Assembly: GCA_000503835.1 (NCBI GenBank)
Contig: CP006914.1
Span: forward strand, 157,218-221,217
DNA: 64,000 nt
Direction of reading: 5' to 3'
Origin: a candidate division WWE3 bacterium RAAC2_WWE3_1
Lineage (GTDB): Bacteria; Patescibacteriota; WWE3; UBA101185; UBA10185
The translations under genes were made by a program, and so were the position numbers. Positions 23,505 to 53,801 of the stretch are shown one piece after another; the first letter of the stretch is position 1, and the number at the start of each line of letters is the position of its first letter. The notes beneath the pieces are model-generated. The model did no database searches. It was not told the DNA's origin and saw only the letters and a list, made by a program, of their open reading frames with translations.

Positions 23505-23577
23505 GGGTCCGTGGCTCAGTGGTTAGAGCGCTCGGTTCACATCCGAGAGGTCCCTGGTTCGATCCCAGGCGGGCCCA
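23505..23577 (+). tRNA. tRNA-Val (anticodon CAC)
   Basis: Hand-folded cloverleaf. Acceptor GGGTCCG/CGGGCCC, D-stem GCTC/GAGC, anticodon stem CTCGG/CCGAG with loop TTCACAT, T-arm CCTGG-TTCGATC-CCAGG, discriminator A. A genomically encoded CCA lies at 23578-23580. Confidence 0.85.
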
Positions 23578-23683
23578 CCATTTTTAGCAACGTTAACCCT
23601 CGCCGTCTTTATATGCTAATATCCCCCATACACAGTTAGTATATTTAGTATTGACTCTCACTAATTTTTAGCAAAGAATTATT

Positions 23684-32107: not shown

Positions 32108-32189
32108 TTTGATACCTCCTAAATTTGGATTAGAGGCTAATTGTACCCTATAGTACATATTTTGTCCAGTCTTAGGGATGTTTAAATGG

Positions 32190-32262
32190 AGCCGATAACA
32201 GGAGTCGAACCTGTGACCTTTCCCTTACGAAGGGACTGCTCTACCAACTGAGCTATACCGGC
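32190..32262 (-). tRNA. tRNA-Thr (anticodon CGU)
   Basis: Reverse-complement folds as GCCGGTA-TA-GCTC-AGTTGGTA-GAGC-A-GTCCC-TTCGTAA-GGGAA-AGGTC-ACAGG-TTCGACT-CCTGT-TATCGGC-T. Very close to canonical bacterial tRNA-Thr; one G·A mismatch at position 27-43. CCA is encoded at 32187-32189. Confidence 0.85.
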
Positions 32263-42109: not shown

Positions 42110-42215
42110 CGGAACGCATTGTTTTTGTTTGCGATGTTTTTCGCTCCGCCATTCTCATCCCTTACACCCTATAAATTTGCCCACCAACCCTACGGGCTGT
42201 TGGTCAAATTTCTGG

Positions 42216-42287
42216 AGCGGGTGACGGGATTCGAACCCGCGACCTTTTCCTTGGGAAGGAAACGCCATACCACTAGGCCACACCCGC
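42216..42287 (-). tRNA. tRNA-Gly (anticodon CCC)
   Basis: Reverse-complement GCGGGTG-TG-GCCT-AGTGGTA-TGGC-G-TTTCC-TTCCCAA-GGAAA-AGGTC-GCGGG-TTCGAAT-CCCGT-CACCCGC-T, close to E. coli tRNA-Gly(CCC). CCA encoded at 42213-42215. Confidence 0.85.
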
Positions 42288-42871: not shown

Positions 42872-42918
42872 TTATGAACCTCCTTCATACGGGGGCAGAA
42901 AATATATCTATACAATGG

Positions 42919-42992
42919 CGGGATCGACGGGACTCGAACCCGCGGCCTCCGCAGTGACAGTGCGGCGCTCTAACCGACTGAGCTACGACCCC
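42919..42992 (-). tRNA. tRNA-Asp (anticodon GUC)
   Basis: Reverse-complement GGGGTCG-TA-GCTC-AGTCGGTTA-GAGC-G-CCGCA-CTGTCAC-TGCGG-AGGCC-GCGGG-TTCGAGT-CCCGT-CGATCCC-G. The T-arm is identical to E. coli tRNA-Asp. CCA encoded at 42916-42918. Confidence 0.85.
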
Positions 42993-43127
42993 ATAATGCT
43001 GGTGTTATACTAGCAATTTGTTGTTATATGGTCAATAAAATGCCTTTTTAAAGGACGGTTTGTGTTTTTGTTAAAATGCCGACTTAGTGCTAGAATTGTC
43101 GAAAATCTTATGTCGAGGAGGGATACT

Positions 43128-43388
43128 ATGCCTAAAGTTACACTGAAGGAATTTGTTCGTCAGATGCGTGCGCAGAGCATACGGCAGATTAGCGTAGAAA
43201 GCTGTTCGGACACGCCCGGCGGTATTCACACACCCTCACGGGTCGAGGAGTATTCAATCGAGGACGATTCAATCAAAAATCTATCCTCGGAAATGATGGA
43301 AGAGATTTATGAGGGTATGCGGTTTCGCCGCTCTCAGGTTAGTCTTGTCCGTCAGGTCGGTGGCACCCTCGAAGTAAAGGTGGGATAA
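43128..43388 (+). CDS. Small hypothetical cytoplasmic protein
   Basis: ATG at 43128 is preceded by GAGGAGGG. The longer ORF-track start lacks a ribosome-binding site. Confidence 0.4.
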   Translation: MPKVTLKEFVRQMRAQSIRQISVESCSDTPGGIHTPSRVEEYSIEDDSIKNLSSEMMEEIYEGMRFRRSQVSLVRQVGGTLEVKVG

Positions 43389-43494
43389 TCTGAATCCGAT
43401 TCTCCCCGCTTAAGCGGCTCTCTGTTGTTTTTTATAGAACAATAACGGGAGCCGCTTTTTTACCTCCTTCACGGAACTTTGCTATTATTTACAT

Positions 43495-45252
43495 ATGAAC
43501 GCCAACCGCATTTCCAATAAAGAAGTCGTTTCAATGATGAAGGAAGTGTTGGCGGCAATGGATGTTAAGAATTTCAACGTTTTCAGAGTGAGAGCTTATC
43601 AAAACGCCATCGCAATCCTCGATAATCTGACGGTCTCAATTTACGACTTATGGGAAAACGGCAGGTTGAAGGAAATTCCGGGGGTAGGTGTAAGCATCTA
43701 CGCCCATTTAAATGAACTATTTTCAACAGGAAAAGTTAAAGAATTCGAGGCAATCAAAAAAGATCTTCCCGAGGGAATGTTTGCTCTTATCGGCATCCGC
43801 GGAATCGGTGCAAGAAAAGCATTTAAACTTGCTACCGCTTTCAAAATAAAAACGCGTGAGAGGGCGGTTGAAAGAATTAAAGAACACGCAGAAAAAGGCG
43901 AGGTACGAGAGCTTGAGGGTTTCGGCGAAAAATCAGAAAAGGACATACTCGAATCTATCGGTCAGTTCAAGATGACCAAGAACGAGAAACAGCGCGTACT
44001 CTACTCAAAAGCCGAAGAAACCGTGGGAAGAATTTACGATTATATGAAGGAACTGGACACCACCGGTCACATTGAGGCGGCAGGCTCTTTCCGCAGGAAG
44101 AACGCCACAATCGGGGATCTGGATATTCCCGTTGCTACCGTCGATCCCGACAAAACGATAAAGCACTTTTTACAGTTTCCTGAAATAGCGGAGACTTTGG
44201 TAAAAGGCGACAAAAAATGCAGTGTCGTCCTTAAAAATGATTTGCAGGTAGACCTAAGAGTTTCTACTCCCGAGGCGTACGGTGCTATGTTGCAGTACTT
44301 CACAGGTTCCAAACAGCACAACATCCTCCTACGCAACTTTGCCCTTTCCAAAAATATGTCTTTGTCCGAATACGGGATAAAAAAGGGAAGTGACACCCAT
44401 GAGTTTCCCGATGAACCATCCTTTTATAAATTTTTAGGACTGCCTTATATCGAACCCGAGCTTAGGAACGGTTCCAACGAGATCGAGGCTGCGATAGAAG
44501 ATAAACTTCCCGAACTTATCACACTAAAAGACATTAAAGGAGAAGTACACACACATACGACTGATTCGGACGGAGTGAGTACTTTGGAAGAGATGGTTGA
44601 GGCAGCTATCGCATTAGGTTATGAGTATCTGGGAATTTCCGATCACGCTCCCAGTGTTACATCGCGCGGATACAAAGAAGTATCGGACATTATAAAAAAG
44701 AAGCGGGCGGCGATAAATAAAATAAACGAAAAACAGAATTTTATTAAAATCTTTTTCGGGTACGAAGTTAATATTCTGGCCGACGCAACGTTGGGACTGC
44801 CCGACGATGTGTTATCGGAATTGGACTATGTTGTTGCATCTATCCACACTTCTTTTAACCAGGATCGGGAGCAGGTAACCGACAGACTTCTAGCGGCAAT
44901 AGAAAATCCGTACGTGAATATTATTGGTCACCCCTCGGGAAGGTTGCTAAACCAACGAGATCCGGTAGATCCTGCCTGGGACAAAGTGTTTTTAGCCGCC
45001 CGTGACAACAATAAAATACTCGAAATAAATTCACAGCCCGACCGTTTAGATCTTACCGACGACCTGGTAAAGGAGGCAATAAGCTGGAAGGTAAAGATGG
45101 TTATAAGCAGCGATGCCCACGCAACAGACCAGTTTTCGTACATGAGATATGGGATATTTAACGCCCGCCGGGGCTGGGCCGAAAAGAAAAATATTATGAA
45201 TACGCTCGGTTTTACTGACTTTATACGGGAAGCAGGAATACGTTTGAAGTGA
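43495..45252 (+). CDS. polX: DNA polymerase X family protein with C-terminal PHP phosphoesterase domain
   Basis: Helix-hairpin-helix motifs (IPGVGVSIYAHL, IRGIGARKAFKL), Pol beta-type nucleotidyltransferase GSFRRKNATIGDLDI, and PHP His motif VHTHTTDSDG. Confidence 0.88.
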   Translation: MNANRISNKEVVSMMKEVLAAMDVKNFNVFRVRAYQNAIAILDNLTVSIYDLWENGRLKEIPGVGVSIYAHLNELFSTGKVKEFEAIKKDLPEGMFALIGIRGIGARKAFKLATAFKIKTRERAVERIKEHAEKGEVRELEGFGEKSEKDILESIGQFKMTKNEKQRVLYSKAEETVGRIYDYMKELDTTGHIEAAGSFRRKNATIGDLDIPVATVDPDKTIKHFLQFPEIAETLVKGDKKCSVVLKNDLQVDLRVSTPEAYGAMLQYFTGSKQHNILLRNFALSKNMSLSEYGIKKGSDTHEFPDEPSFYKFLGLPYIEPELRNGSNEIEAAIEDKLPELITLKDIKGEVHTHTTDSDGVSTLEEMVEAAIALGYEYLGISDHAPSVTSRGYKEVSDIIKKKRAAINKINEKQNFIKIFFGYEVNILADATLGLPDDVLSELDYVVASIHTSFNQDREQVTDRLLAAIENPYVNIIGHPSGRLLNQRDPVDPAWDKVFLAARDNNKILEINSQPDRLDLTDDLVKEAISWKVKMVISSDAHATDQFSYMRYGIFNARRGWAEKKNIMNTLGFTDFIREAGIRLK

Positions 45253-45311
45253 ATTCCTTGGAAAAAGATATATAATAGCTTTAGTAATTTTGTTACCTAA
45301 GGAGGTGCACC

Positions 45312-45854
45312 ATGGAGATACTATTAGTTATCGTTGCGTTAGCCGCAATATTTTTAATCTCGATCTATAACTCTCTTGTAACATTGAAAGTTAAGATTAA
45401 GGAAGCCTGGAGCCAGATAGACGTACAGCTTAAAAGAAGGATCGACCTTATACCTAATTTGGTAGAGTCGGTTAAAGGTTACGCCGCTCACGAAAAAGAA
45501 GTGTTCGAAAATGTTACCAAAGCCCGCGCGGCCTTGATGACAGCAGGAGACGCGAAGGCTGCCGGAGAAGCTGATATGCAGTTAACTTCAGCTTTGAAAA
45601 GCCTTTTTGCCGTTGCTGAAGCCTATCCGGAACTAAAAGCCCAGGAAGGTTTTATAAACTTGCAGAAGGAACTTTCCGATACAGAAGATAAGGTCGCTTA
45701 CTCCAGACAATTCTTTAACAGTGTCGTAAGACAATACAACGAGAAGATTGTTGCCTTCCCTTCAAACCTGATCGCCGGAATGTTCGGATTCAAGCAAGAA
45801 GCGTTCTTTGAAGCAGAAGCGCAGGACAGAGAACCGGTTAAAGTTCAGTTCTAA
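45312..45854 (+). CDS. lemA: LemA-family protein
   Basis: N-terminal TM plus the conserved LemA core ([34 protein letters not shown]). Shine-Dalgarno GGAGG at 45301-45305. Confidence 0.85.
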
Positions 45855-46321
45855 TGGACAAGCACTCGTTAAAGATAAAGATTGCCGTTCTGGCTTATTT
45901 CGAAAAAGACGGCAAGGTTCTTTTACAGAAACGAAAGAACACCGGCTGGCGGGATGGTTGGTATGGGTTAGTAGCAGGGCATGTCGATGAAGGCGAACCT
46001 TACAAATTTGCACTGTGCCGCGAAATTAAAGAGGAAGCCGGGGTTGATGTTCTGGAAGCCGATTTGGAGTTCGGGCACTTTTTATCAATTCCGTCCAAGA
46101 TCTCTGACTGCGACCGGCAGTTTTTCTACTTCATAGTTAAAAAGTGGAAAGGCACGCCGACAAATACAGAACCCGAAAAATGTGACGGGATCGAGTGGTT
46201 CGATAAGAATTCATTACCGGAAAATTTGATACCTGTAGTGAAATACGGAATGGACAAAATGCTTACCGGAGAAAAATACAGCGAGTTTGGTTGGGAAGAA
46301 GGATACACAGAACGATCATGA
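45854..46321 (+). CDS. Nudix hydrolase
   Basis: Nudix box GHVDEGEPYKFALCREIKEEAGV (Gx5Ex7REuxEExGu). Confidence 0.85.
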   Translation: MDKHSLKIKIAVLAYFEKDGKVLLQKRKNTGWRDGWYGLVAGHVDEGEPYKFALCREIKEEAGVDVLEADLEFGHFLSIPSKISDCDRQFFYFIVKKWKGTPTNTEPEKCDGIEWFDKNSLPENLIPVVKYGMDKMLTGEKYSEFGWEEGYTERS

Positions 46322-47217
46322 ACATGTATCAGCATATAAATCAAAATAAGAGGGACACAGTCATTATTGTTGCCCTGTTTATTACCGTAGTTACGGCCAT
46401 AGGATGGTTTGTGGGCGAATATTTTTATGAAGGGTCCGGCGTGACATTTTTAGGCGGCGCTCTTATTTTCTCGGGAATTTCCGGACTTATTTCTTATTAC
46501 AATTCAGACAAAATAGTTTTGGGGATTTCCGGTGCCAAAGAAGTTATGTTTGAAGACAGTCCGGATCTTCACAAACTGGTAGAAAACATGAGTATAGCTT
46601 CAGGTATTCCCAAGCCAAGAATTTATATCATTCAGGACTCGTCTATGAACGCATTTGCAACCGGACGCGATCCCGAACATTCCGTCATTTGTTTTACAAC
46701 CGGAATTGTTCAGCGGCTTGAAAAAAGAGAACTCGAGGGGGTAATCGCACACGAAATGTCCCACATCGGAAATTATGATATACGACTTATGTCTATCGTG
46801 AGTATTTTAGTCGGAACCGTCATGCTTTTGTCTGATTGGTTCACAAGAGGGGTATTTTACGGAGGTTCGAGGAAAAGAAGTTCCGACTCGAACTCGGGCG
46901 GCAGTCTATTTTTCGTGATAGGTATGGTTTTACTTATATTAAGTCCGATAATTGCCACCTTGATAAAACTTGCTATTAGCAGGAACAGGGAATTTTTAGC
47001 TGACGCCACAGCTGTTTCTATCACCCGACATCCGAAAGGGCTGGCGGATGCTCTTATGAAGCTGGGCGCCGATCAGGAAGTTTTAGAAGCAGCGAACGGT
47101 GCTACAGCCCATCTTTACATCGTAAGTCCGGTGAAAACTTTGGGAAAAGCAGTGGAAGGTCTTTTTTCCACGCACCCGCCTATCGAAGAACGCATAAACC
47201 GTCTCCTGCAGATGTAA
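46318..47217 (+). CDS. htpX: HtpX-like M48 membrane zinc metalloprotease
   Basis: TM helices and HEMSH (HExxH). The start at 46318 forms an ATGA overlap with the Nudix stop. Confidence 0.85.
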   Translation: MNMYQHINQNKRDTVIIVALFITVVTAIGWFVGEYFYEGSGVTFLGGALIFSGISGLISYYNSDKIVLGISGAKEVMFEDSPDLHKLVENMSIASGIPKPRIYIIQDSSMNAFATGRDPEHSVICFTTGIVQRLEKRELEGVIAHEMSHIGNYDIRLMSIVSILVGTVMLLSDWFTRGVFYGGSRKRSSDSNSGGSLFFVIGMVLLILSPIIATLIKLAISRNREFLADATAVSITRHPKGLADALMKLGADQEVLEAANGATAHLYIVSPVKTLGKAVEGLFSTHPPIEERINRLLQM

Positions 47218-47266
47218 ACGCCCAAAAACCTTTTAATATCCACGAAAATGCTTTAATATAAACAAT

Positions 47267-47566
47267 ATGGACAGCAGGAAAATAACAATCGAAGAGGTCA
47301 AAAAAATCGCTCAAATGTCTAAACTTAATATTGAAGGCGATGAAGAAAAGTTTTCACAACTGTTATCACAAACCCTGGATTACATAAAAATATTAGACGA
47401 ACTTGATACTTCCGAAGTTAGTGAGACATTCCAAGTTACGGGTTTAACAAATGTTTATCAGGACGGTTCACAAAAAGTAACACTTTCGCGCGAAGACGCA
47501 CTAAAAAATGTAAAGGAAACGGCACGAAATCTCGTGGTTACCAAAGGAGTTTTCGATCGTGAGTAA
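47267..47566 (+). CDS. gatC: Asp/Glu-tRNA amidotransferase subunit C
   Basis: About 99 aa. ITIEEVKKIAQMSKLNI...LDYI..L.E.DTS matches the GatC pattern. Immediately upstream of gatA with a 8-nt overlap. Confidence 0.85.
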   Translation: MDSRKITIEEVKKIAQMSKLNIEGDEEKFSQLLSQTLDYIKILDELDTSEVSETFQVTGLTNVYQDGSQKVTLSREDALKNVKETARNLVVTKGVFDRE

Positions 47567-48998
47567 ACTTAATGAACTTACAGTTTTAGAAGCGCTCGAA
47601 GGTTTGAAAAAGAAAGAATTTACTTCCGTAGAATTGGTAAAGGCCTGTTTATCCCAAATTGAAAAATACGATTCTAAAATTAAGGCCTTTTTGAGAGTTA
47701 CCCCTGAGATTGCATTAAAAAGAGCCGAAGAAGCCGACAAAGAGATTTCTACCAAAGGTGTCGAGGCCTTTATAAACAAACCTTTGTTAGGTATTCCGTA
47801 TGCGGCGAAAGATAATTATTCAACAAAAGGTGTGGAAACTACCGCGTCCTCAAAAGTTTTGGAAGGTTATGTTCCTCCGTTTGACGCTACGGCCATTAAA
47901 AGGCTGGACGAGGCAGGAGCGATTTTGCTGGGAAAAACTAACTTGGATGCTTTTGCCCACGGATCTTCTACTGAAACTTCGGACTTCGGAACGACCTTTA
48001 ATCCGTGGGACCTGACTAAGGTTCCGGGCGGCTCCTCAGGGGGCTCAGCGGCCGCTGTAGCGTCTCACATGGTGTTATTTGCAACCGGAAGTGAGACAGG
48101 GGGAAGTACAAGAGGTCCCGCGTCCTGGTGCGGTGTTACGGGCGTAAAACCCTCTTACGGCAGGGTGAGCAGGTATGGAATTGTAGCCATGGCTTCTTCT
48201 ACCGATTCTCCTGGTCCGTTAACTAAAACAGCCGAAGATGCCGCGGTAGTTTTAAGAGTTATGGCGGGAAAAGATCCGCTTGACGCAACATCCTTACAAA
48301 CAGAAGTGCCCGATTATTTAGCCGAAGGGAAGTCTTTTAGCATGAAGGGAATAAAAATCGGAAGGCCGGTGTCCTACTTTGAAATGGAGCTTGAAGAGGG
48401 AACAAGGAAAAAAGTTGATGAGGCGGTTGAGGTTTTCAGAAGTTTGGGAGCCGAGATTATTGATGTCGACATGCTGAGTCCGAAATATTCTATTGCCGTT
48501 TACACAATTCTGCAAAGATCCGAAGTTTCTTCTAATTTGGCTAGACTCGACGGAATAAGATACGGAAACGACCGCAACTCTTTCGGATTTGAAGCTAAGA
48601 AAAGAATTATGCTGGGTGCTTACACTTTAAGCTCGGGATACTACGATGCTTACTACGCGAAAGCACAAAAAGTACGGACATTAATTAAGCAAAGTTTTGA
48701 TGCTGCGTTTGAAAAAGTCGATTTGCTGGTTGCTCCTTCCATGCCGTGTGTCGCTTTGAATGTAGGCGAAAGCTCTAACTCTCCGATGTTCGGAGAAATG
48801 ATGGATGTTTTGAACGAGCCAAGCTGTATTGCGGGAGTACCGGGAATTAGCGTGCCGTGCGGGTTATACAACGGTTTACCCGTCGGTGTCCAAATAATGA
48901 GCAAAATTAACGAAGAGTCGAAAATATTCGGGGCGCTATTTAATTATCAGGGGGCGACGGGCTTTCATCTGGAAAAACCGGCGTTAATCAAGGAATAA
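47559..48998 (+). CDS. gatA: Asp/Glu-tRNA amidotransferase subunit A (amidase signature)
   Basis: Amidase signature GGSSGGSAAAVAS and KTNLDAFA. Confidence 0.92.
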   Translation: MSKLNELTVLEALEGLKKKEFTSVELVKACLSQIEKYDSKIKAFLRVTPEIALKRAEEADKEISTKGVEAFINKPLLGIPYAAKDNYSTKGVETTASSKVLEGYVPPFDATAIKRLDEAGAILLGKTNLDAFAHGSSTETSDFGTTFNPWDLTKVPGGSSGGSAAAVASHMVLFATGSETGGSTRGPASWCGVTGVKPSYGRVSRYGIVAMASSTDSPGPLTKTAEDAAVVLRVMAGKDPLDATSLQTEVPDYLAEGKSFSMKGIKIGRPVSYFEMELEEGTRKKVDEAVEVFRSLGAEIIDVDMLSPKYSIAVYTILQRSEVSSNLARLDGIRYGNDRNSFGFEAKKRIMLGAYTLSSGYYDAYYAKAQKVRTLIKQSFDAAFEKVDLLVAPSMPCVALNVGESSNSPMFGEMMDVLNEPSCIAGVPGISVPCGLYNGLPVGVQIMSKINEESKIFGALFNYQGATGFHLEKPALIKE

Positions 48999-48999
48999 T

Positions 49000-49392
49000 A
49001 TGGGATTTTTTGATTTTATATTCGGTTCAGGAACAGGATCAGCCTACGGAAGCGTGAGCCAGGAAACCGTGAGAAAAATAACATCTGACTGGGAAAACGT
49101 AAGTGTGTTACTTAAACAAAAAGGTCCTTCGCAGTTAAAACAGGCATTAATCACAGCTGATAAATCTTTGGACGCTGTTTTAAAAGAAATAGTTCCCGGA
49201 GAGACAATGGGGGAACGTCTGAAAAACGCCGTTGAGAAATTTGACAGGCCTACTTACAACAGAATTTGGGAGGCCCATAAATTAAGAAATAGCTTGGTAC
49301 ACGAGGCAGGGTTCGAGCCGGCATATTTTATGATTACCGAAGCAGTCGCTAATTTAAAAGAGGCTTTATACAAATTGGGAGTTAATGTTTAA
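49000..49392 (+). CDS. Small HEPN-like (DUF4145-type) protein inserted between gatA and gatB
   Basis: 130 aa and helical. C-terminal KLRNSLVHEAG fits the HEPN Rx4-6H motif as found in the DUF4145 family. Tightly packed with 1-3 nt gaps to both neighbours. Confidence 0.45.
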   Translation: MGFFDFIFGSGTGSAYGSVSQETVRKITSDWENVSVLLKQKGPSQLKQALITADKSLDAVLKEIVPGETMGERLKNAVEKFDRPTYNRIWEAHKLRNSLVHEAGFEPAYFMITEAVANLKEALYKLGVNV

Positions 49393-49395
49393 AAA

Positions 49396-50718
49396 ATGAA
49401 CGAAGAATTATTAGGAAAATACAAACTTGTCGTGGGGATGGAAGTTCACATCCAACCTAAAACGGGACAGAAAATGTTTTGCGGATGTGACGCTAATATA
49501 TGGGGCGCCGAGCCTAATACCCGCACCTGTCCTACATGCCTGGGATTACCGGGCGCCTTACCCGTTCCTAATTTAGAAGGAGTTAAAAAGGCGCAACTAC
49601 TGGGTTTAGCCTTAAACTGCAACTTAAACACCGATTCGAGATTTGACAGAAAACACTATTTTTACCCCGACCTTCCGAAAGGTTACCAAATTAGTCAGTA
49701 CAAACAACCTTTGTGCGAAAACGGCTCGCTTCTTTTGGAAAGCGGCAATACAGCTGATATAGAAAGAGTTCATCTCGAAGAGGACGTTGCTAAGTCTTTT
49801 CACGAAGGCGGTAAAACACTGGTGGATTTTAATAAGTCCGGACTTCCTTTAATAGAAGTAGTGACGAGACCGTGTTTCCGCTCCATTGAAGACGCTGTCG
49901 ATTACTGTAAAAAACTGCAGGTAATTTGCAGGTACTTAGGAATAAGCGAAGCCGACATGGAAAAAGGACAGATGAGACTCGAAGCCAATATTTCACTTCG
50001 TACAGCCGAGATGGAAGCAAAAAACGAACTGTCCCCTTACAAAGTAGAAGTCAAGAATATAAACTCGTTCAAATACATGGAAAAAGCTGTTCGAGCAGAG
50101 ATTGTGAGACAGCGCGAAATTTTGGAAAAAGGCGAAATGCCGAAACAGGAAAACAGGGGATACGACGAATTCAAAAATATTACTGTCGCGCAACGAGATA
50201 AAGAAGAAGCTTCGGATTACAGATACTTTCCCGAACCCGATATTCCGCCGATGGTTTTTGATGAGAAATATATTACTGAGTTGAGGGCGGTTGAAGGCAG
50301 TTTGCCTCAGATACTACGAAAAGAAATGGAAGATAAGGGCGTCACAAAAGAGCAGAGCAGGATTTTGGTGGAAGTGATGGGGTTTCCGGCTGTGGAAAAA
50401 TTTGAAAAGCTTGTAGACGGGGGTTTGGGTGCTTCTAAAGCGGCTACAGTTTTGATTAATAGAAAAGATCTTTTTGAACTGGACGCCGGAGAAATTTTAG
50501 AAAAATTAAAGGGCGAGAGTGACAAAGTTTCAGATACGGGGGAAATAAAAAAGGTTGTCGAAGCAGTTTTGGAAAAGAACCCATCCGCTGTTTCGGATTT
50601 TAAAAACGGAAAAGAAAGCGCCGTACAGTTTTTGTTAGGCAACGTTATGAAGGAAATGAGGGGTAAGGCAGATCCGGTTATTGCATCGGATTTGATAAAA
50701 GAATTCCTTACAAGGTGA
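49396..50718 (+). CDS. gatB: Asp/Glu-tRNA amidotransferase subunit B
   Basis: N-terminus GMEVHIQ..T..KMFCGC......EPNT..CP.CLGLPGALPV is GatB-specific, including the Cys cluster. Confidence 0.92.
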   Translation: MNEELLGKYKLVVGMEVHIQPKTGQKMFCGCDANIWGAEPNTRTCPTCLGLPGALPVPNLEGVKKAQLLGLALNCNLNTDSRFDRKHYFYPDLPKGYQISQYKQPLCENGSLLLESGNTADIERVHLEEDVAKSFHEGGKTLVDFNKSGLPLIEVVTRPCFRSIEDAVDYCKKLQVICRYLGISEADMEKGQMRLEANISLRTAEMEAKNELSPYKVEVKNINSFKYMEKAVRAEIVRQREILEKGEMPKQENRGYDEFKNITVAQRDKEEASDYRYFPEPDIPPMVFDEKYITELRAVEGSLPQILRKEMEDKGVTKEQSRILVEVMGFPAVEKFEKLVDGGLGASKAATVLINRKDLFELDAGEILEKLKGESDKVSDTGEIKKVVEAVLEKNPSAVSDFKNGKESAVQFLLGNVMKEMRGKADPVIASDLIKEFLTR

Positions 50719-50788
50719 TAAACATTTCGGCGGTTACCCAAAAAAGAGGCCGCACTGTTGGAATAGTCCCAATAATGCGGCCACGCGA

Positions 50789-51037
50789 CTAGTTAACAAT
50801 CAAATCTCTTGCGATGGAAAACGCGAGTACAAAGGAAACGACCGAAACGCTGAAATCAAGAAGGTTTCTGCCGTTTTTGAGCCGTTCAGTTCCAATCGCA
50901 GCCAGAATCCCGATGATTACTAACGAAACGTACCGCAGCGTTATCTCATCGAAAATAACGCGTTTTACTAAAAGCAACGCTCCCCATGCCAACAGAATTA
51001 GCACCCCAAGAGCTTTTAGCCAGTGCTTCTCAATCAT
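50789..51037 (-). CDS. Small membrane protein (hypothetical)
   Basis: 82 aa with two hydrophobic helices, divergent from polA. No further support. Confidence 0.3.
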   Translation of the reverse strand: MIEKHWLKALGVLILLAWGALLLVKRVIFDEITLRYVSLVIIGILAAIGTERLKNGRNLLDFSVSVVSFVLAFSIARDLIVN

Positions 51038-51142
51038 TTTCTCCTCCTTTTGAATGCCAGCATCTTATCACACTATGGGTCCTGGGACAACATTGAAATA
51101 TCACTCAATTATAGTGTTTCTTCAAGTGGTATCATATACGGG

Positions 51143-52990
51143 ATGGAACTAAAATTTGACCCGGCAAACCCTACATACGACTACATCACAAAAACTGATC
51201 AGGCAAACGAGGCTCTCGAAATTTTGGAAAAAGTAAAAGTGGTCGGAGTAGACATTGAAAGCACGGGTCTTGATCCTTACACCTCAACTTTGCTGCTTGT
51301 ACAAATCGGTACCGAAGATAAAAGTTATATTTTCGACGCACGAGCTCTTGAACTAAAAAATTTCACACGTTTTAAAGAATTTCTGGAAAATCCAAAGATA
51401 CTTAAAATTTTCCACAACGGTAAGTTCGACTACAAACACATCAAAATTCACATTGGTGCTGCGCCCACAAATTTATACGACACAATGCTTGCAGAAGTCA
51501 TTTTAAACGCAGGGCTCGGGCGTGGTTACTATTCCTTAAAAGACCTTACCAAAAAATATACCGGGCTGGATTTGAAAAAGGATGTGCGGGAAACGTTTGA
51601 AGGCGTGACGAATAAAACAAAAATTAATGTTGAACAATTGAAATACTCCGCATTGGACACCTTGATATTATTTCCGGTTTTCAATGAGCAGCTTGTCAAA
51701 ATAAAAAGCGAAAATCTATTAAATGTCGCCAAACTTGAGTTTGCTGCAACCCGCGCTGTAGGCGAAATGGAGCTGAAAGGCATTTATATTGATGAGAAAA
51801 AGTGGCGGGACATTATGGTGCATCTATCTGAGAGAAGAAACGCTTTAGCTAAAGAATTTCAGGAGGCCATAAGGCCTTATTACTCCAACAACATGATTGA
51901 TCTTTTCGGAAATCACGCAGATACAATAAATATAAACAGCCAGCAGCAGTTGATGGACCTGTTCAATAACAAGTTGAATTTAAATCTGCCGTCCACGGGC
52001 GATGCGTTGCTTGCTTTGCATAATGAACCTATTGTTAAGCTACTAAGAAATTACAGAGGCTACGAAAAACTATTGTCGGCGTTCGGGGACTCGCTGTTAT
52101 CAAAAATAAATCCCGTTACAAAAAGACTTCACCCGGAATTCAACCAGCTCGGTACAGCAACAGGAAGGTTCTCCTGTAATAATCCTAATCTCCAGCAAAT
52201 TCCGAGAAACTCAGAAGAAGCTCCTTTTAGAACCTGTTTCAATCCTGAGCCCGGTTATAAATTAGTTACGGCGGATTACTCTTCATTTGAAATGAGAATT
52301 CTTGCAGAGCTTTCCGGAGACGCGAAAATGATTAAAGCGTTAAACGACGGTCTGGATATTCACTCTTACACCGCATCACTTATGTTTAACGTTCCTTACA
52401 GTGATGATTTTAAAAAGAAATATCCCAGCTATAGGCAAATCGCCAAACCTATAGGTTTCGGGTTGATGTACGGAATGGGATCAATGGGATTAGCGGCCAG
52501 AATAGAAAACGAAACCGGAACACCCGTATCCAGAGAACAGGGAGAAGATTATATGAACAGGTACTTCGCGAGCTATCCAAGCGTCAAGGACTATCTTAAT
52601 AAAACGGCAAGAAAAGCTGTGAAGGACGGTTTTAGTACAACGCCCCTCGGAAGAAAACGCTGGTACGATAAACCATTAAAAGACGATCCCGATTTCAGGA
52701 AAAAGGAATCGCGTATTGAGAGGGAAGCAAAAAACCACCCAATTCAGGGAACAAACGCTGATGCGGTCAAGTACGCTTTAATATTTTTAAACGACAGGAT
52801 GAAAAAAGAGGGAATAGACGGCGGTCTTACCCTCACCGTTCACGATGAAATAGTGTCGGAGATTAGAGACGACCAGGCGGAGTATTGGGCAAAAGTGCAG
52901 TCAGACGAGATGGTAAGAGCTGCCGCACTTTTTATAAAAAAAGTGAAGATTCAAAGCGACCCGTTTGTGGGTGATGTTTGGGAACATTAA
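51143..52990 (+). CDS. polA: DNA polymerase I, Klenow-like (3'-5' exonuclease plus polymerase domains; no 5' nuclease domain)
   Basis: Start moved to ATG at 51143 (MELKFDP...). DEDD exonuclease motif VVGVDIESTGL. Family A motif B RQIAKPIGFGLMYGMG and motif C LTVHDEIV. Confidence 0.88.
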   Translation: MELKFDPANPTYDYITKTDQANEALEILEKVKVVGVDIESTGLDPYTSTLLLVQIGTEDKSYIFDARALELKNFTRFKEFLENPKILKIFHNGKFDYKHIKIHIGAAPTNLYDTMLAEVILNAGLGRGYYSLKDLTKKYTGLDLKKDVRETFEGVTNKTKINVEQLKYSALDTLILFPVFNEQLVKIKSENLLNVAKLEFAATRAVGEMELKGIYIDEKKWRDIMVHLSERRNALAKEFQEAIRPYYSNNMIDLFGNHADTININSQQQLMDLFNNKLNLNLPSTGDALLALHNEPIVKLLRNYRGYEKLLSAFGDSLLSKINPVTKRLHPEFNQLGTATGRFSCNNPNLQQIPRNSEEAPFRTCFNPEPGYKLVTADYSSFEMRILAELSGDAKMIKALNDGLDIHSYTASLMFNVPYSDDFKKKYPSYRQIAKPIGFGLMYGMGSMGLAARIENETGTPVSREQGEDYMNRYFASYPSVKDYLNKTARKAVKDGFSTTPLGRKRWYDKPLKDDPDFRKKESRIEREAKNHPIQGTNADAVKYALIFLNDRMKKEGIDGGLTLTVHDEIVSEIRDDQAEYWAKVQSDEMVRAAALFIKKVKIQSDPFVGDVWEH

Positions 52991-52999
52991 ATTTTAGGA

Positions 53000-53047
53000 A
53001 TAAAAAAGGCGACCTTGTAAGCTTGTTAAGCTGTACGAAAGTCGCCT
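53000..53047. terminator. Hairpin terminator between convergent polA and 53058-53801 genes
   Basis: AGGCGAC (53007-53013) / GTCGCCT (53041-53047) stem with an inner AAGCTTGTTAAGCT sub-palindrome. The A-run 53001-53006 on + provides a U-tract for the minus-strand transcript. Confidence 0.5.
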
Positions 53048-53057
53048 AAGAAGTGTC

Positions 53058-53801
53058 TCAGAACCTCTTTGTTGCTTCGCGGTCATCCCAAGTTCCGCTC
53101 AGAAGCTCTTTTCCATCCCATACGTAGTACATGTCGATATCTTTGTTGCTTCCGGACGGGTTGTGAAAATAAACCCTAAATATGTTGTTAATAGGTATTT
53201 CCGCAATCGCTTCCTTGATGCACTCGTCTTCGCCGATGCACATGAGGACTGTGCCGGGAAACTCCAGAAAAGCACTCGCCGGAACGAAGTCCGTATTGTC
53301 AAAGGCGTACCCTTTTTTTAGCAACTCAACTTCTTTGGGCGAAAGAAATTCCATGGGATTGAATTCCAATCGCTTTGTTCCGAAAGTTGATTGAAGTCGC
53401 TTGGTAACGGTCTTCAAGGACTCCTCCCTTAACATAAACTCCTTTGGGAATTCAATCAGGTCGCCGGTCAGGTGGATACAAGAGCTATCGTTGTCTGCTC
53501 TAAAAATCACAATGATTTCCGAGTTGTCGAACTCGGGTTCCACCTCTCTGGAGTACAAGGACATATTTCCGTCCTTGAAGGTGCGAAGATTTGCTCTTTG
53601 GATGACAACGTTTCCGGTTTCTAACCACTCTACGTGTTGTTTGAGGGTAAGCTTAATCTGTAGTACTCCTGAATGCAGGCGGGAAGCCCCGATAAATATA
53701 ACGGGATTTGTCTTATCCCCCGTCTGCACAAGATTCCTTACTGCCATGCCCTTAACAACACCTCTTGACCATATTTCAAAAAGCTGCACGCTCTCTTCCA
53801 T
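53058..53801 (-). CDS. Hypothetical protein (247 aa), no recognisable domain
   Basis: Intact ORF standing alone on the minus strand between polA and clpC-like, with a plausible terminator downstream. Confidence 0.45.
   Translation of the reverse strand: MEESVQLFEIWSRGVVKGMAVRNLVQTGDKTNPVIFIGASRLHSGVLQIKLTLKQHVEWLETGNVVIQRANLRTFKDGNMSLYSREVEPEFDNSEIIVIFRADNDSSCIHLTGDLIEFPKEFMLREESLKTVTKRLQSTFGTKRLEFNPMEFLSPKEVELLKKGYAFDNTDFVPASAFLEFPGTVLMCIGEDECIKEAIAEIPINNIFRVYFHNPSGSNKDIDMYYVWDGKELLSGTWDDREATKRF

Follow-up and report, generated by a model that had tools for sequence, protein, structure and literature searches.

A conserved small protein family with a predicted HEPN fold, encoded within the gatCAB operon of Patescibacteria

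Introduction

The question raised by this locus is why a small protein with the marks of a HEPN ribonuclease should be encoded within the operon for GatCAB, the tRNA-dependent amidotransferase. The window, by which we mean the whole stretch of 64,000 nucleotides analysed (contig CP006914.1 of the candidate division WWE3 bacterium RAAC2_WWE3_1), includes gatC, gatA and gatB genes with a 130-aa ORF lying between gatA and gatB. A preliminary description took the product to be a helical, HEPN-like protein of DUF4145 type, and suggested a domesticated toxin, an RNA-binding accessory factor or a selfish insertion. To our knowledge the HEPN domains of bacteria are known almost only from conflict systems, namely toxin-antitoxin pairs, abortive infection, CRISPR effectors and anticodon nucleases. 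Patescibacteria generally lack both GlnRS and AsnRS, and depend on indirect tRNA aminoacylation. The structural and comparative evidence presented here is solid and the context is an unexpected one for a HEPN protein; the function is what we infer from the two.

The gatCAB operon and the ORF within it

The genes concerned, with the Pfam matches of the Gat subunits, are as follows.

47267..47566, + strand: gatC, first gene of the operon, with an 8-nt overlap with the start of gatA (PF02686 GatC, E 1.1e-9)
47559..48998, + strand: gatA, glutaminase subunit, of the amidase family (PF01425 Amidase, E 4.5e-126)
48990..48994, + strand: AAGGA, Shine-Dalgarno-like sequence within the end of gatA, 5 nt 5' of the ATG of the HEPN ORF; putative role
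49000..49392, + strand: HEPN ORF, with ATG start, for a 130-aa protein of predicted HEPN fold
49396..50718, + strand: gatB, kinase/transamidase subunit (PF02934 GatB_N, E 1.4e-100; PF02637 GatB_Yqey, E 1.3e-18)

The junctions can be read directly from the sequence. The gatA stop codon TAA (48996-48998) is followed by a single base, t, and then the ATG of the HEPN ORF at 49000, and the TAA of this ORF (49390-49392) is followed by the spacer aaa and the gatB ATG at 49396, so that the coordinates and the gaps of 1 and 3 nt first given for the ORF are exact. All four genes are on the same strand and the two gaps leave no room for a terminator. The HEPN ORF abuts or overlaps its neighbours and would therefore be carried on the same mRNA, and the co-transcription proposed earlier is the natural reading of the operon junctions. 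A scan for terminators and promoters, used here solely for the absence of an internal terminator, found no terminator-like site on the + strand within the operon, which is weak evidence as the total number of sites was not above that in shuffled controls. A T-box or similar RNA element in the operon was considered and rejected, there being no Rfam match at E<=1 in 43000-53500. The GC content is 0.40 for the HEPN ORF, 0.43 for the operon and 0.435 for the window, and the base composition of the ORF is native.

GatB binds the tRNA acceptor end, and we considered whether the HEPN protein might offset loss of a GatB domain. This is unsupported, as GatB_N and GatB_Yqey are both present. Among carriers of the HEPN gene GatB ranges in length from 434 to 503 aa.

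A genuine gene under constraint

A word-indexed search gave 209 close homologues of 126-136 aa, from candidate division WWE3 or the Patescibacteria group, and all are unnamed or annotated as 'hypothetical'. In an alignment of 57 close sequences, with 54-95% identity to the window protein, 18 columns are invariant. The dN/dS of the HEPN gene, for the window gene against three close relatives, is 0.037-0.057. For gatA and gatB the corresponding values are 0.034-0.039 and 0.055-0.062. With these data, and with thousands of distant homologues (below), the HEPN ORF is a real gene and not a chance reading frame. Across WWE3 the Spearman rho of identity is 0.65 for HEPN and gatA, 0.66 for HEPN and gatB, and 0.65 for gatA and gatB, and the HEPN gene has been inherited vertically alongside gatA and gatB, under purifying selection that is equally strong.

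Family assignment

The window protein reached no model in Pfam (2025 copy), NCBIfam (2026), PADLOC or PHROGs, and for PADLOC and PHROGs there were 0 families matched at E<=10. Single-sequence scans gave noise matches only (Glyco_hydro_3_C, E 0.06; PqiB, E 0.08). Pfam scans of 65 and of 140 members of the family (E<=1) gave matches that were all sub-threshold and were concentrated on models of the HEPN clan. The most frequent was Swt1-like HEPN (PF18731), found for 4 of the 65 and 9 of the 140 members with a best E of 0.0086, which is below the gathering score. Others found among the 140 were RiboL-PSP (5), Cthe2314 (4), Ymh (3), pEK499_p136 (3), DZIP3 (2) and Apea (2). With regard to the earlier label of 'DUF4145-type', PF13643 has no match to the window protein and is not in the 25 most-matched families for 205 members (E<=1), and the label is not supported. 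The protein appears, by sequence, to belong to none of the described HEPN families.

Sequence searches of the PDB with the single protein and with a profile gave TRAIL, TsaB and ribosomal protein S20, which we treat as chance matches. An identity with S20 was rejected, as the match has E 0.13 or worse and covers helices 1-2 only; S20 also recurs as a weak Pfam match in 4 of the 140 members, and we read this as similarity in helical composition.

Predicted fold and candidate active site

The AlphaFold2 model of the window protein, made with the family alignment as input, is a confident one, with pLDDT 85.8 and pTM 0.78. The predicted helices are 21-40, 43-64, 70-76 (a short one, in an insert), 83-101 and 109-125. 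The top Foldseek matches to the model have TM scores of 0.54-0.67, and HepT and HEPN toxins are among the nearest of the structures solved. The conserved elements within the ORF are given below.

49000..49026, + strand: N-terminus MGFFDFIFG, short, hydrophobic and conserved (M1 and F8 in 88%), with low model confidence
49159..49185, + strand: helix-2 acidic motif D54-K55-x2-D58-x3-K62, family consensus ADKLLDxxL[KR]
49198..49224, + strand: insert G67-ETMGERL-K75 between helices 2 and 3, strongly conserved and basic, with the short helix 70-76
49267..49305, + strand: signature W90-E-A-H93-K94-L-R96-N97-S-L-V-H101-E102, with the Rx4H motif and polar N after R, at the end of helix 3

HEPN domains are defined as a four-helix bundle with an insert between helices 2 and 3 and an Rx4-6H motif ending helix 3, with a polar residue (N, D or H) after the conserved R, and often an acidic residue in helix 2 within an Ex3[KR] element (PMC3710099). 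All four of these features are found here. The model has the bundle and the insert; R96-x4-H101 is at the end of helix 83-101; the polar N97 is directly after R96; and in helix 43-64 D54 and D58 are invariant or at least 90% conserved, with D58-x3-K/R62 a Dx3[KR] variant of the Ex3[KR] element that has Asp in place of Glu. We conclude that the protein is predicted to have the HEPN four-helix fold. The conserved insert is a candidate substrate-binding element.

The segment KLRNSLVHE, residues 94-102 of the ORF (nt 49279-49305), was the basis for the original suggestion of a HEPN protein, and it does carry the Rx4-6H motif, as R96-N97-x3-H101 at the canonical position at the end of helix 3. No substitution is found at W90, H93, K94, R96, N97 or H101 in the 57 close or the 65 distant sequences aligned, and R, N and H are invariant in 140 family representatives. 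The motif W..HK.RN...H is present in about 268 of the 270 sequences retrieved, and Rx4H in every full-length one, the exceptions to the longer signature being one fragment and two single substitutions beside an intact RNx3H. The description as a helical, HEPN-like protein is thus well borne out by the model, the Foldseek matches and the family-wide invariance of R, N and H. In Legionella HepT the RX4H residues are dispensable for activity (PMC11586414), and the intact motif is therefore strong but not conclusive evidence for an active site.

This conservation bears on whether the protein might be a non-catalytic accessory subunit of GatCAB, with its HEPN domain an RNA-, nucleotide- or protein-binding module. 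The conserved R, N, H and K would then bind phosphate and not catalyse cleavage, and the protein might hold tRNA, organise a transamidosome with AspRS or GluRS, or tether GatCAB to the membrane. The tight junctions, with probable translational coupling to gatA and gatB, and the small, subunit-like size are in keeping with such a role, for which the N-terminal helix of many members (below) offers docking or anchoring; an active RNase made constitutively and without an inhibitor would be risky for the cell, and MtlR-type HEPN proteins work without catalysis (PMC3710099). However binding-only HEPN families typically lack Rx4-6H (PMC3710099), whereas here R, N and H, together with H93 and K94, are invariant, that of R, N and H extending over thousands of sequences. 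Furthermore at two loci a degenerate paralogue without the motif adjoins an intact HEPN gene, which shows that the motif decays when it is not needed. On balance we consider a purely binding role doubtful.

Size and spread of the family, and a membrane helix

An exhaustive profile search of 1.84 billion cluster representatives matched 2,328 clusters with E<=1e-3 as the cut-off and 858 with E<=1e-10, and these are without exception small proteins; profile searches of 90% clusters gave at least 3,486 and at least 6,287 proteins. Where the source name includes an organism it is in all cases WWE3 or Patescibacteria. By these data it appears to be a family of small proteins that is Patescibacteria-wide and specific to the Patescibacteria.

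Several metagenome-assembled genomes titled 'Saccharibacteria' or 'Nomurabacteria' show WWE3-type synteny, and we have not relied on such titles.

Members outside WWE3 are typically 140-170 aa, through an added N-terminal segment that has basic residues, a hydrophobic helix of 17-25 residues and then more basic residues. Where these proteins have a hydrophobic or TM helix of 20-30 residues, the WWE3 proteins have the short conserved MxFFDFLFG. A TM-like N-terminal window, called as 19 residues with Kyte-Doolittle hydropathy >=1.6, is present in 70 of 150 distant representatives and in 0 of 120 WWE3-type proteins, and an N-terminal helix predicted at 9-37 is further evidence for a membrane helix. 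In the clear cases there are charges after the helix, and by the positive-inside rule the HEPN domain of these members would be membrane-tethered and face the cytoplasm.

Conserved position between gatA and gatB

Position was surveyed in two sets of loci. The first came from a scan of one genome per GTDB species, which gave 80 HEPN loci, and among 79 WWE3 species genomes gatA is directly upstream of the HEPN gene in 77 and gatB downstream in 78. Identity across these loci ranges from 41 to 95% for the HEPN protein and from 44 to 97% for gatA. The second set came from a search of metagenomes with a profile built from distant members outside WWE3, which gave 583 confirmed stretches, 80 of which were kept. 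Where there is enough flanking sequence, 65 of 71 have gatA upstream and 64 of 68 have gatB downstream, and four of the loci scored as having no gatA are short contigs ending in a cyclophilin gene, which elsewhere is found between gatA and the HEPN gene. The arrangement is thus not an oddity of this genome, as the same place is occupied in 77-78 of 79 WWE3 species and about 64 of 70 distant loci. It had also been considered that the ORF might be a canonical GatCAB accessory subunit of known function, and of this the wide conservation with GatCAB stands and the known function does not.

By direct look-up the WWE3 order is polX-LemA-HtpX-gatC-gatA-(small ORF)-X-(SDR)-gatB-polA, where X is the HEPN gene, and a distant lineage has ligA-gatC-gatA-PPIase-X-gatB-pilins. 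The flanks outside gatC to gatB vary between lineages (ligA, pilins, MscS). The junctions of the HEPN gene overlap or are <=30 nt in most loci, an approximate figure as the choice of start codon favours small gaps. In one relative aspS is within the operon, as gatC-gatA-aspS-HEPN-gatB, which fits a transamidosome theme. No fusion to a Gat subunit was found among about 420 retrieved proteins of 75-199 aa.

There are exceptions. In the survey by GTDB species one is the locus HtpX-HEPN-gatC-gatA and the other a contig labelled Methylophilaceae. Six members lie away from gatB or from both gat genes, the HtpX-HEPN-gatC-gatA locus among them, and the relocated arrangements include gatA-X-Lgt, TsaE-X, and X beside a convergent gene for a class I aaRS.

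Other genes are also found in the gatA-gatB interval. About 20 WWE3 loci have a gene for a two-TM protein of 57-70 aa upstream of the HEPN gene, and about 17 non-WWE3 loci have one for a TM-anchored cyclophilin in that place. An SDR gene, or one for a TM and Cys-rich protein of ~90 aa, may lie between the HEPN gene and gatB, and one locus has methyltransferase-like genes in the interval. In Mycobacterium tuberculosis pfkA is between gatA and gatB. Position alone is therefore no proof of shared function.

It is in this light that one must consider whether the HEPN gene is simply a passenger in the operon, encoding a lineage-specific and often membrane-tethered general endoribonuclease that has nothing to do with GatCAB specifically. 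Such an enzyme would act in mRNA decay or in rRNA or tRNA maturation, much as RNase Y or Las1 do, and its place would be kept by ancestral gene order and co-expression with translation genes. The unrelated genes in the same junctions (SDR, cyclophilin, small TM proteins and R-M-like genes), the conserved synteny of unrelated genes across WWE3 and the members that adjoin Lgt, TsaE or the aaRS can all be accommodated in this way, and a membrane anchor suits an RNase Y-like role in a degradosome better than one with an amidotransferase. However gatA-X-gatB persists where the outer flanks have all changed and gatA identity has fallen to about 45-50%, the HEPN gene is kept where other inserted genes are gained and lost, and linkage to gat genes is about 90-97% in two independently sampled sets. 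We regard a passenger with no specific tie to GatCAB as rather unlikely.

Toxin, antitoxin and mobility

Whatever its function, the HEPN gene is an old part of the operon, passed on vertically, and neither a recent nor a selfish arrival, given its fixed position, divergence that tracks that of gatA and gatB, and the lack of any relative among the phage records (50,697), the plasmids (72,556) or the IMG/VR contigs. The near-fixed position, the constraint equal to that on gatA and gatB, and these searches all count against the suggestion of a selfish insertion.

A HEPN protein with a complete RNase motif, and with HepT and HEPN toxins among its closest solved structures, nevertheless invites comparison with type VII HepT-like or Abi-like genes, and the locus might have been one where a toxin, abortive-infection or selfish HEPN gene had inserted, perhaps with an antitoxin not recognised as such. 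The lone homologue on a contig labelled Methylophilaceae could reflect transfer. HepT toxins are defined by RX4HXY, the Tyr being AMPylated by the MNT antitoxin MntA (PMC11586414). In the gat-linked family the motif continues as H101-E102-[A/S]103-G104, and the tyrosine is absent. There is no MNT or other small antitoxin-like partner beside the HEPN ORF in the window, and no recognisable MNT among the ORFs scanned between gatA and gatB at about 160 related loci. A toxin with a cognate antitoxin, as first envisaged, thus finds neither its partner nor its tyrosine here. With a place fixed in about 78 of 79 species genomes, a dN/dS of about 0.05, native base composition and no PADLOC or PHROGs match to set beside the phage, plasmid and IMG/VR results, we consider any toxin or selfish reading very improbable.

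Possible function

The reading that we put first, and hold tentatively, is that the protein is a housekeeping HEPN RNase or RNA-binding partner that is co-expressed with GatCAB and functionally tied to it, with a putative role on tRNA. In order of probability this is followed by the passenger general RNase, then the non-catalytic subunit and lastly the toxin or selfish gene.

By analogy with the superfamily (PMC3710099), the protein would dimerise and cut RNA endonucleolytically without need of a metal, leaving 2',3'-cyclic phosphate ends, with H101 as the general base and R96 and N97 stabilising the transition state. From its context it would serve a housekeeping role tied to indirect tRNA aminoacylation, and would not be a growth-arresting toxin. 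The likeliest role might be to bind or cleave the tRNAs of the transamidosome (tRNA-Gln, tRNA-Asn and their mischarged Glu and Asp forms) in quality control or turnover. A link to tRNA is suggested by the gatCAB context together with the frequency with which HEPN nucleases act on tRNA: PrrC and RloC do so (PMC3710099), as does a type VII HEPN toxin (PMC11586414), and Cas13 is reported to cut anticodons and acceptor stems.

Some observations count against an RNase tied to GatCAB. It is hard to see what a soluble amidotransferase would gain from a membrane tether, the order of unrelated genes in polX-LemA-HtpX-gatCAB-polA is also conserved across WWE3, and there are both the unrelated genes in the gatA-gatB interval and the few members apart from gat genes.

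A bolder proposal, to which we give a low probability, is that this is the first bacterial housekeeping HEPN ribonuclease and a fourth, Patescibacteria-specific and often membrane-tethered, component of transamidation. It would pick out the tRNAs on which GatCAB acts, such as Glu-tRNA-Gln or Asp-tRNA-Asn left mischarged where amidation has stalled, and either cut or sequester them. If this is so, the enzyme would couple glutamine and amide supply to the fidelity of translation, in organisms for which the indirect pathway is the sole route.

Significance

A HEPN protein with an intact motif is fixed in one of the best conserved translation operons throughout a very large radiation of bacteria, and its rate of evolution is as low as that of the adjacent subunits. 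If it is active it will be a domesticated or primordial housekeeping HEPN RNase and a new player in indirect tRNA aminoacylation, and if inactive, a new accessory subunit of GatCAB. In either case a family with over 6,000 sequence clusters, annotated until now as 'hypothetical protein', gains a predicted fold, a candidate active site and a functional context that can be tested, and the gene adds a defined signature gene for CPR genomes.

Comparison with known systems

HEPN superfamily (Anantharaman et al. 2013, PMC3710099; Pfam clan CL0291). The gat-linked family shares with the superfamily the predicted four-helix up-down bundle with an insert between helices 2 and 3, Rx4H ending helix 3, the N after R and the conserved acidic residue in helix 2. 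It differs in having its own signature, W-x-A-H-K-x-R-N-x3-H-E, and the conserved GxTMGERLK insert, and in being located in a core translation operon and not in a conflict system.

HepT of the HepT/MntA type VII systems (DUF86; PDB 5yep, 6m6w, 7bxo, 7ae2, 8xdj). Here the likeness is in size, about 130 aa, in the five-helix layout and in the R-x4-H at almost equal residue numbers. However the gat-linked family has RNx3HE[A/S]G where HepT has RX4HXY, with no Tyr two residues past the His, and whereas HepT has an adjacent MNT nucleotidyltransferase the gat-linked gene does not, and is single copy, vertically inherited and not mobile.

Swt1-like, RiboL-PSP and the Abi2 clade (PF18731, PF18735). 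These share the RN...H form of the motif and give the only recurring sequence similarity. The matches are far below gathering scores, and the gat-linked proteins have no fused PIN, L-PSP or other domain and are in a different operon context.

DUF4145 (PF13643). This is also a HEPN family, with Rx4-6H mostly conserved. DUF4145 proteins are tied to R-M systems, helicases and defence contexts (PMC3710099); the gat-linked family is not.

Eukaryotic Las1 and the KEN domain of Ire1 and RNase L. Beyond membership of the superfamily these have no sequence relation to the gat-linked family, which in contrast to them lacks a partner kinase or Grc3-like protein. RNase Y, raised above as a functional parallel, is a membrane-anchored bacterial RNase of KH/HD fold.

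GatCAB and transamidosome components (GatC, GatA, GatB, GatF, ND-AspRS, ND-GluRS). The HEPN protein is similar to no Gat subunit, and what it shares with GatA and GatB is the operon and, probably, translational coupling. We know of no fourth bacterial subunit of GatCAB and none was found in the literature searched. A full-text literature search gave no publication joining HEPN and GatCAB, and no relevant one joining HEPN, amidotransferase and Patescibacteria or CPR; gat genes do not feature in the 2013 census of HEPN proteins (PMC3710099). What is known in this case is the fold and the probable chemistry, and what is new is the HEPN family itself and its conserved housekeeping context.

Gene order around gatCAB

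In the window the gat genes lie in a block that runs from polX to polA, with the HEPN gene between gatA and gatB, and this polX...gatCA-HEPN-gatB...polA order is kept in nearly all WWE3 species genomes. gatA starts with a GTG codon at 47559 and shares 8 nt with the end of gatC.

43495-52990, block with the order polX (PHP)-LemA-Nudix-HtpX-gatC-gatA-HEPN-gatB-(82-aa membrane ORF)-polA
50789-51037, - strand, 82-aa membrane ORF between gatB and polA
23505-23580, tRNA-Val (CAC)
32187-32262, tRNA-Thr (CGT)
42213-42287, tRNA-Gly (CCC)
42916-42992, tRNA-Asp (GTC)

These four are the tRNA genes of the window, which has none for tRNA-Gln or tRNA-Asn. The gene for tRNA-Asp is encoded on the other strand from the gat operon, some 4.3 kb upstream of it.

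Family members elsewhere

In a minority of the HEPN family gatB is not adjacent, and the arrangements are TsaE-HEPN (L123, 1175-2310; L numbers are relatives' loci, with coordinates within each), gatA(C-terminus)-HEPN-Lgt-TrxB-DsbA (L084, 144-1381), HEPN-Lgt (L117, 58-1198) and HEPN convergent with a gene that resembles class I aminoacyl-tRNA synthetases (L147, 520-2303). A 199-aa homologue (L077, 3938-4537) is on contig CAXBPZ010000034.1, which is labelled Methylophilaceae and has a GC content of 34%, where it follows smc, a zipA-like gene and ligA. Its core has 67% identity to the WWE3 proteins, its N-terminus resembles a signal peptide and its C-terminal tail is unrelated. Its presence on this contig reflects either a rare transfer from Patescibacteria or a chimeric assembly.

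Genes at the gatA/HEPN junction

L010 3814-3999, L016 3807-3998 and L034 3805-3999, 57-70-aa ORF with two hydrophobic helices
L013 2190-3953, aspS (tRNA-synt_2, E 7e-118, with anticodon OB and GAD domains)
L101 3242-4000, L103 3231-3953 and L083 4297-4992, cyclophilin-type PPIase

The two-helix protein is conserved in about 20 WWE3 loci, is absent from the window and has no Pfam match. As the WWE3 HEPN proteins do not have the N-terminal TM helix of other lineages, it might be a separate membrane partner. The PPIase has a single TM helix and its N-terminus is basic; it is present in about 17 loci of non-WWE3 Patescibacteria. The aspartyl-tRNA synthetase of L013 is of bacterial type, giving the operon order gatC-gatA-aspS-HEPN-gatB.

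Genes on either side of gatB

L010 4403-5104, short-chain dehydrogenase (adh_short, E 2e-50)
L036 2123-2398, protein of about 90 aa
L093 870-2286, two genes, one with a 278-aa product resembling a DNA methyltransferase
L101 6454-7086 and L103 5979-6620, second HEPN-like paralogue of 210-213 aa, immediately 3' of gatB

The first three are at the HEPN/gatB junction. The dehydrogenase is also found there in about 15 other WWE3 loci, among them L011, L014, L016, L023, L025, L026, L030, L033, L043, L044, L046, L047, L049 and L051. The 90-aa protein, also in L039, L045, L052, L066 and L128, has a single TM helix, a tail rich in Cys (CxC...C...C) and no Pfam match. The L093 insert is a second case of foreign cargo in the HEPN-gatB interval. 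The paralogue downstream of gatB is degenerate, with the HK.RN...H motif gone and C-terminal TM helices present, and it could be an inactive partner for the intact HEPN copy.
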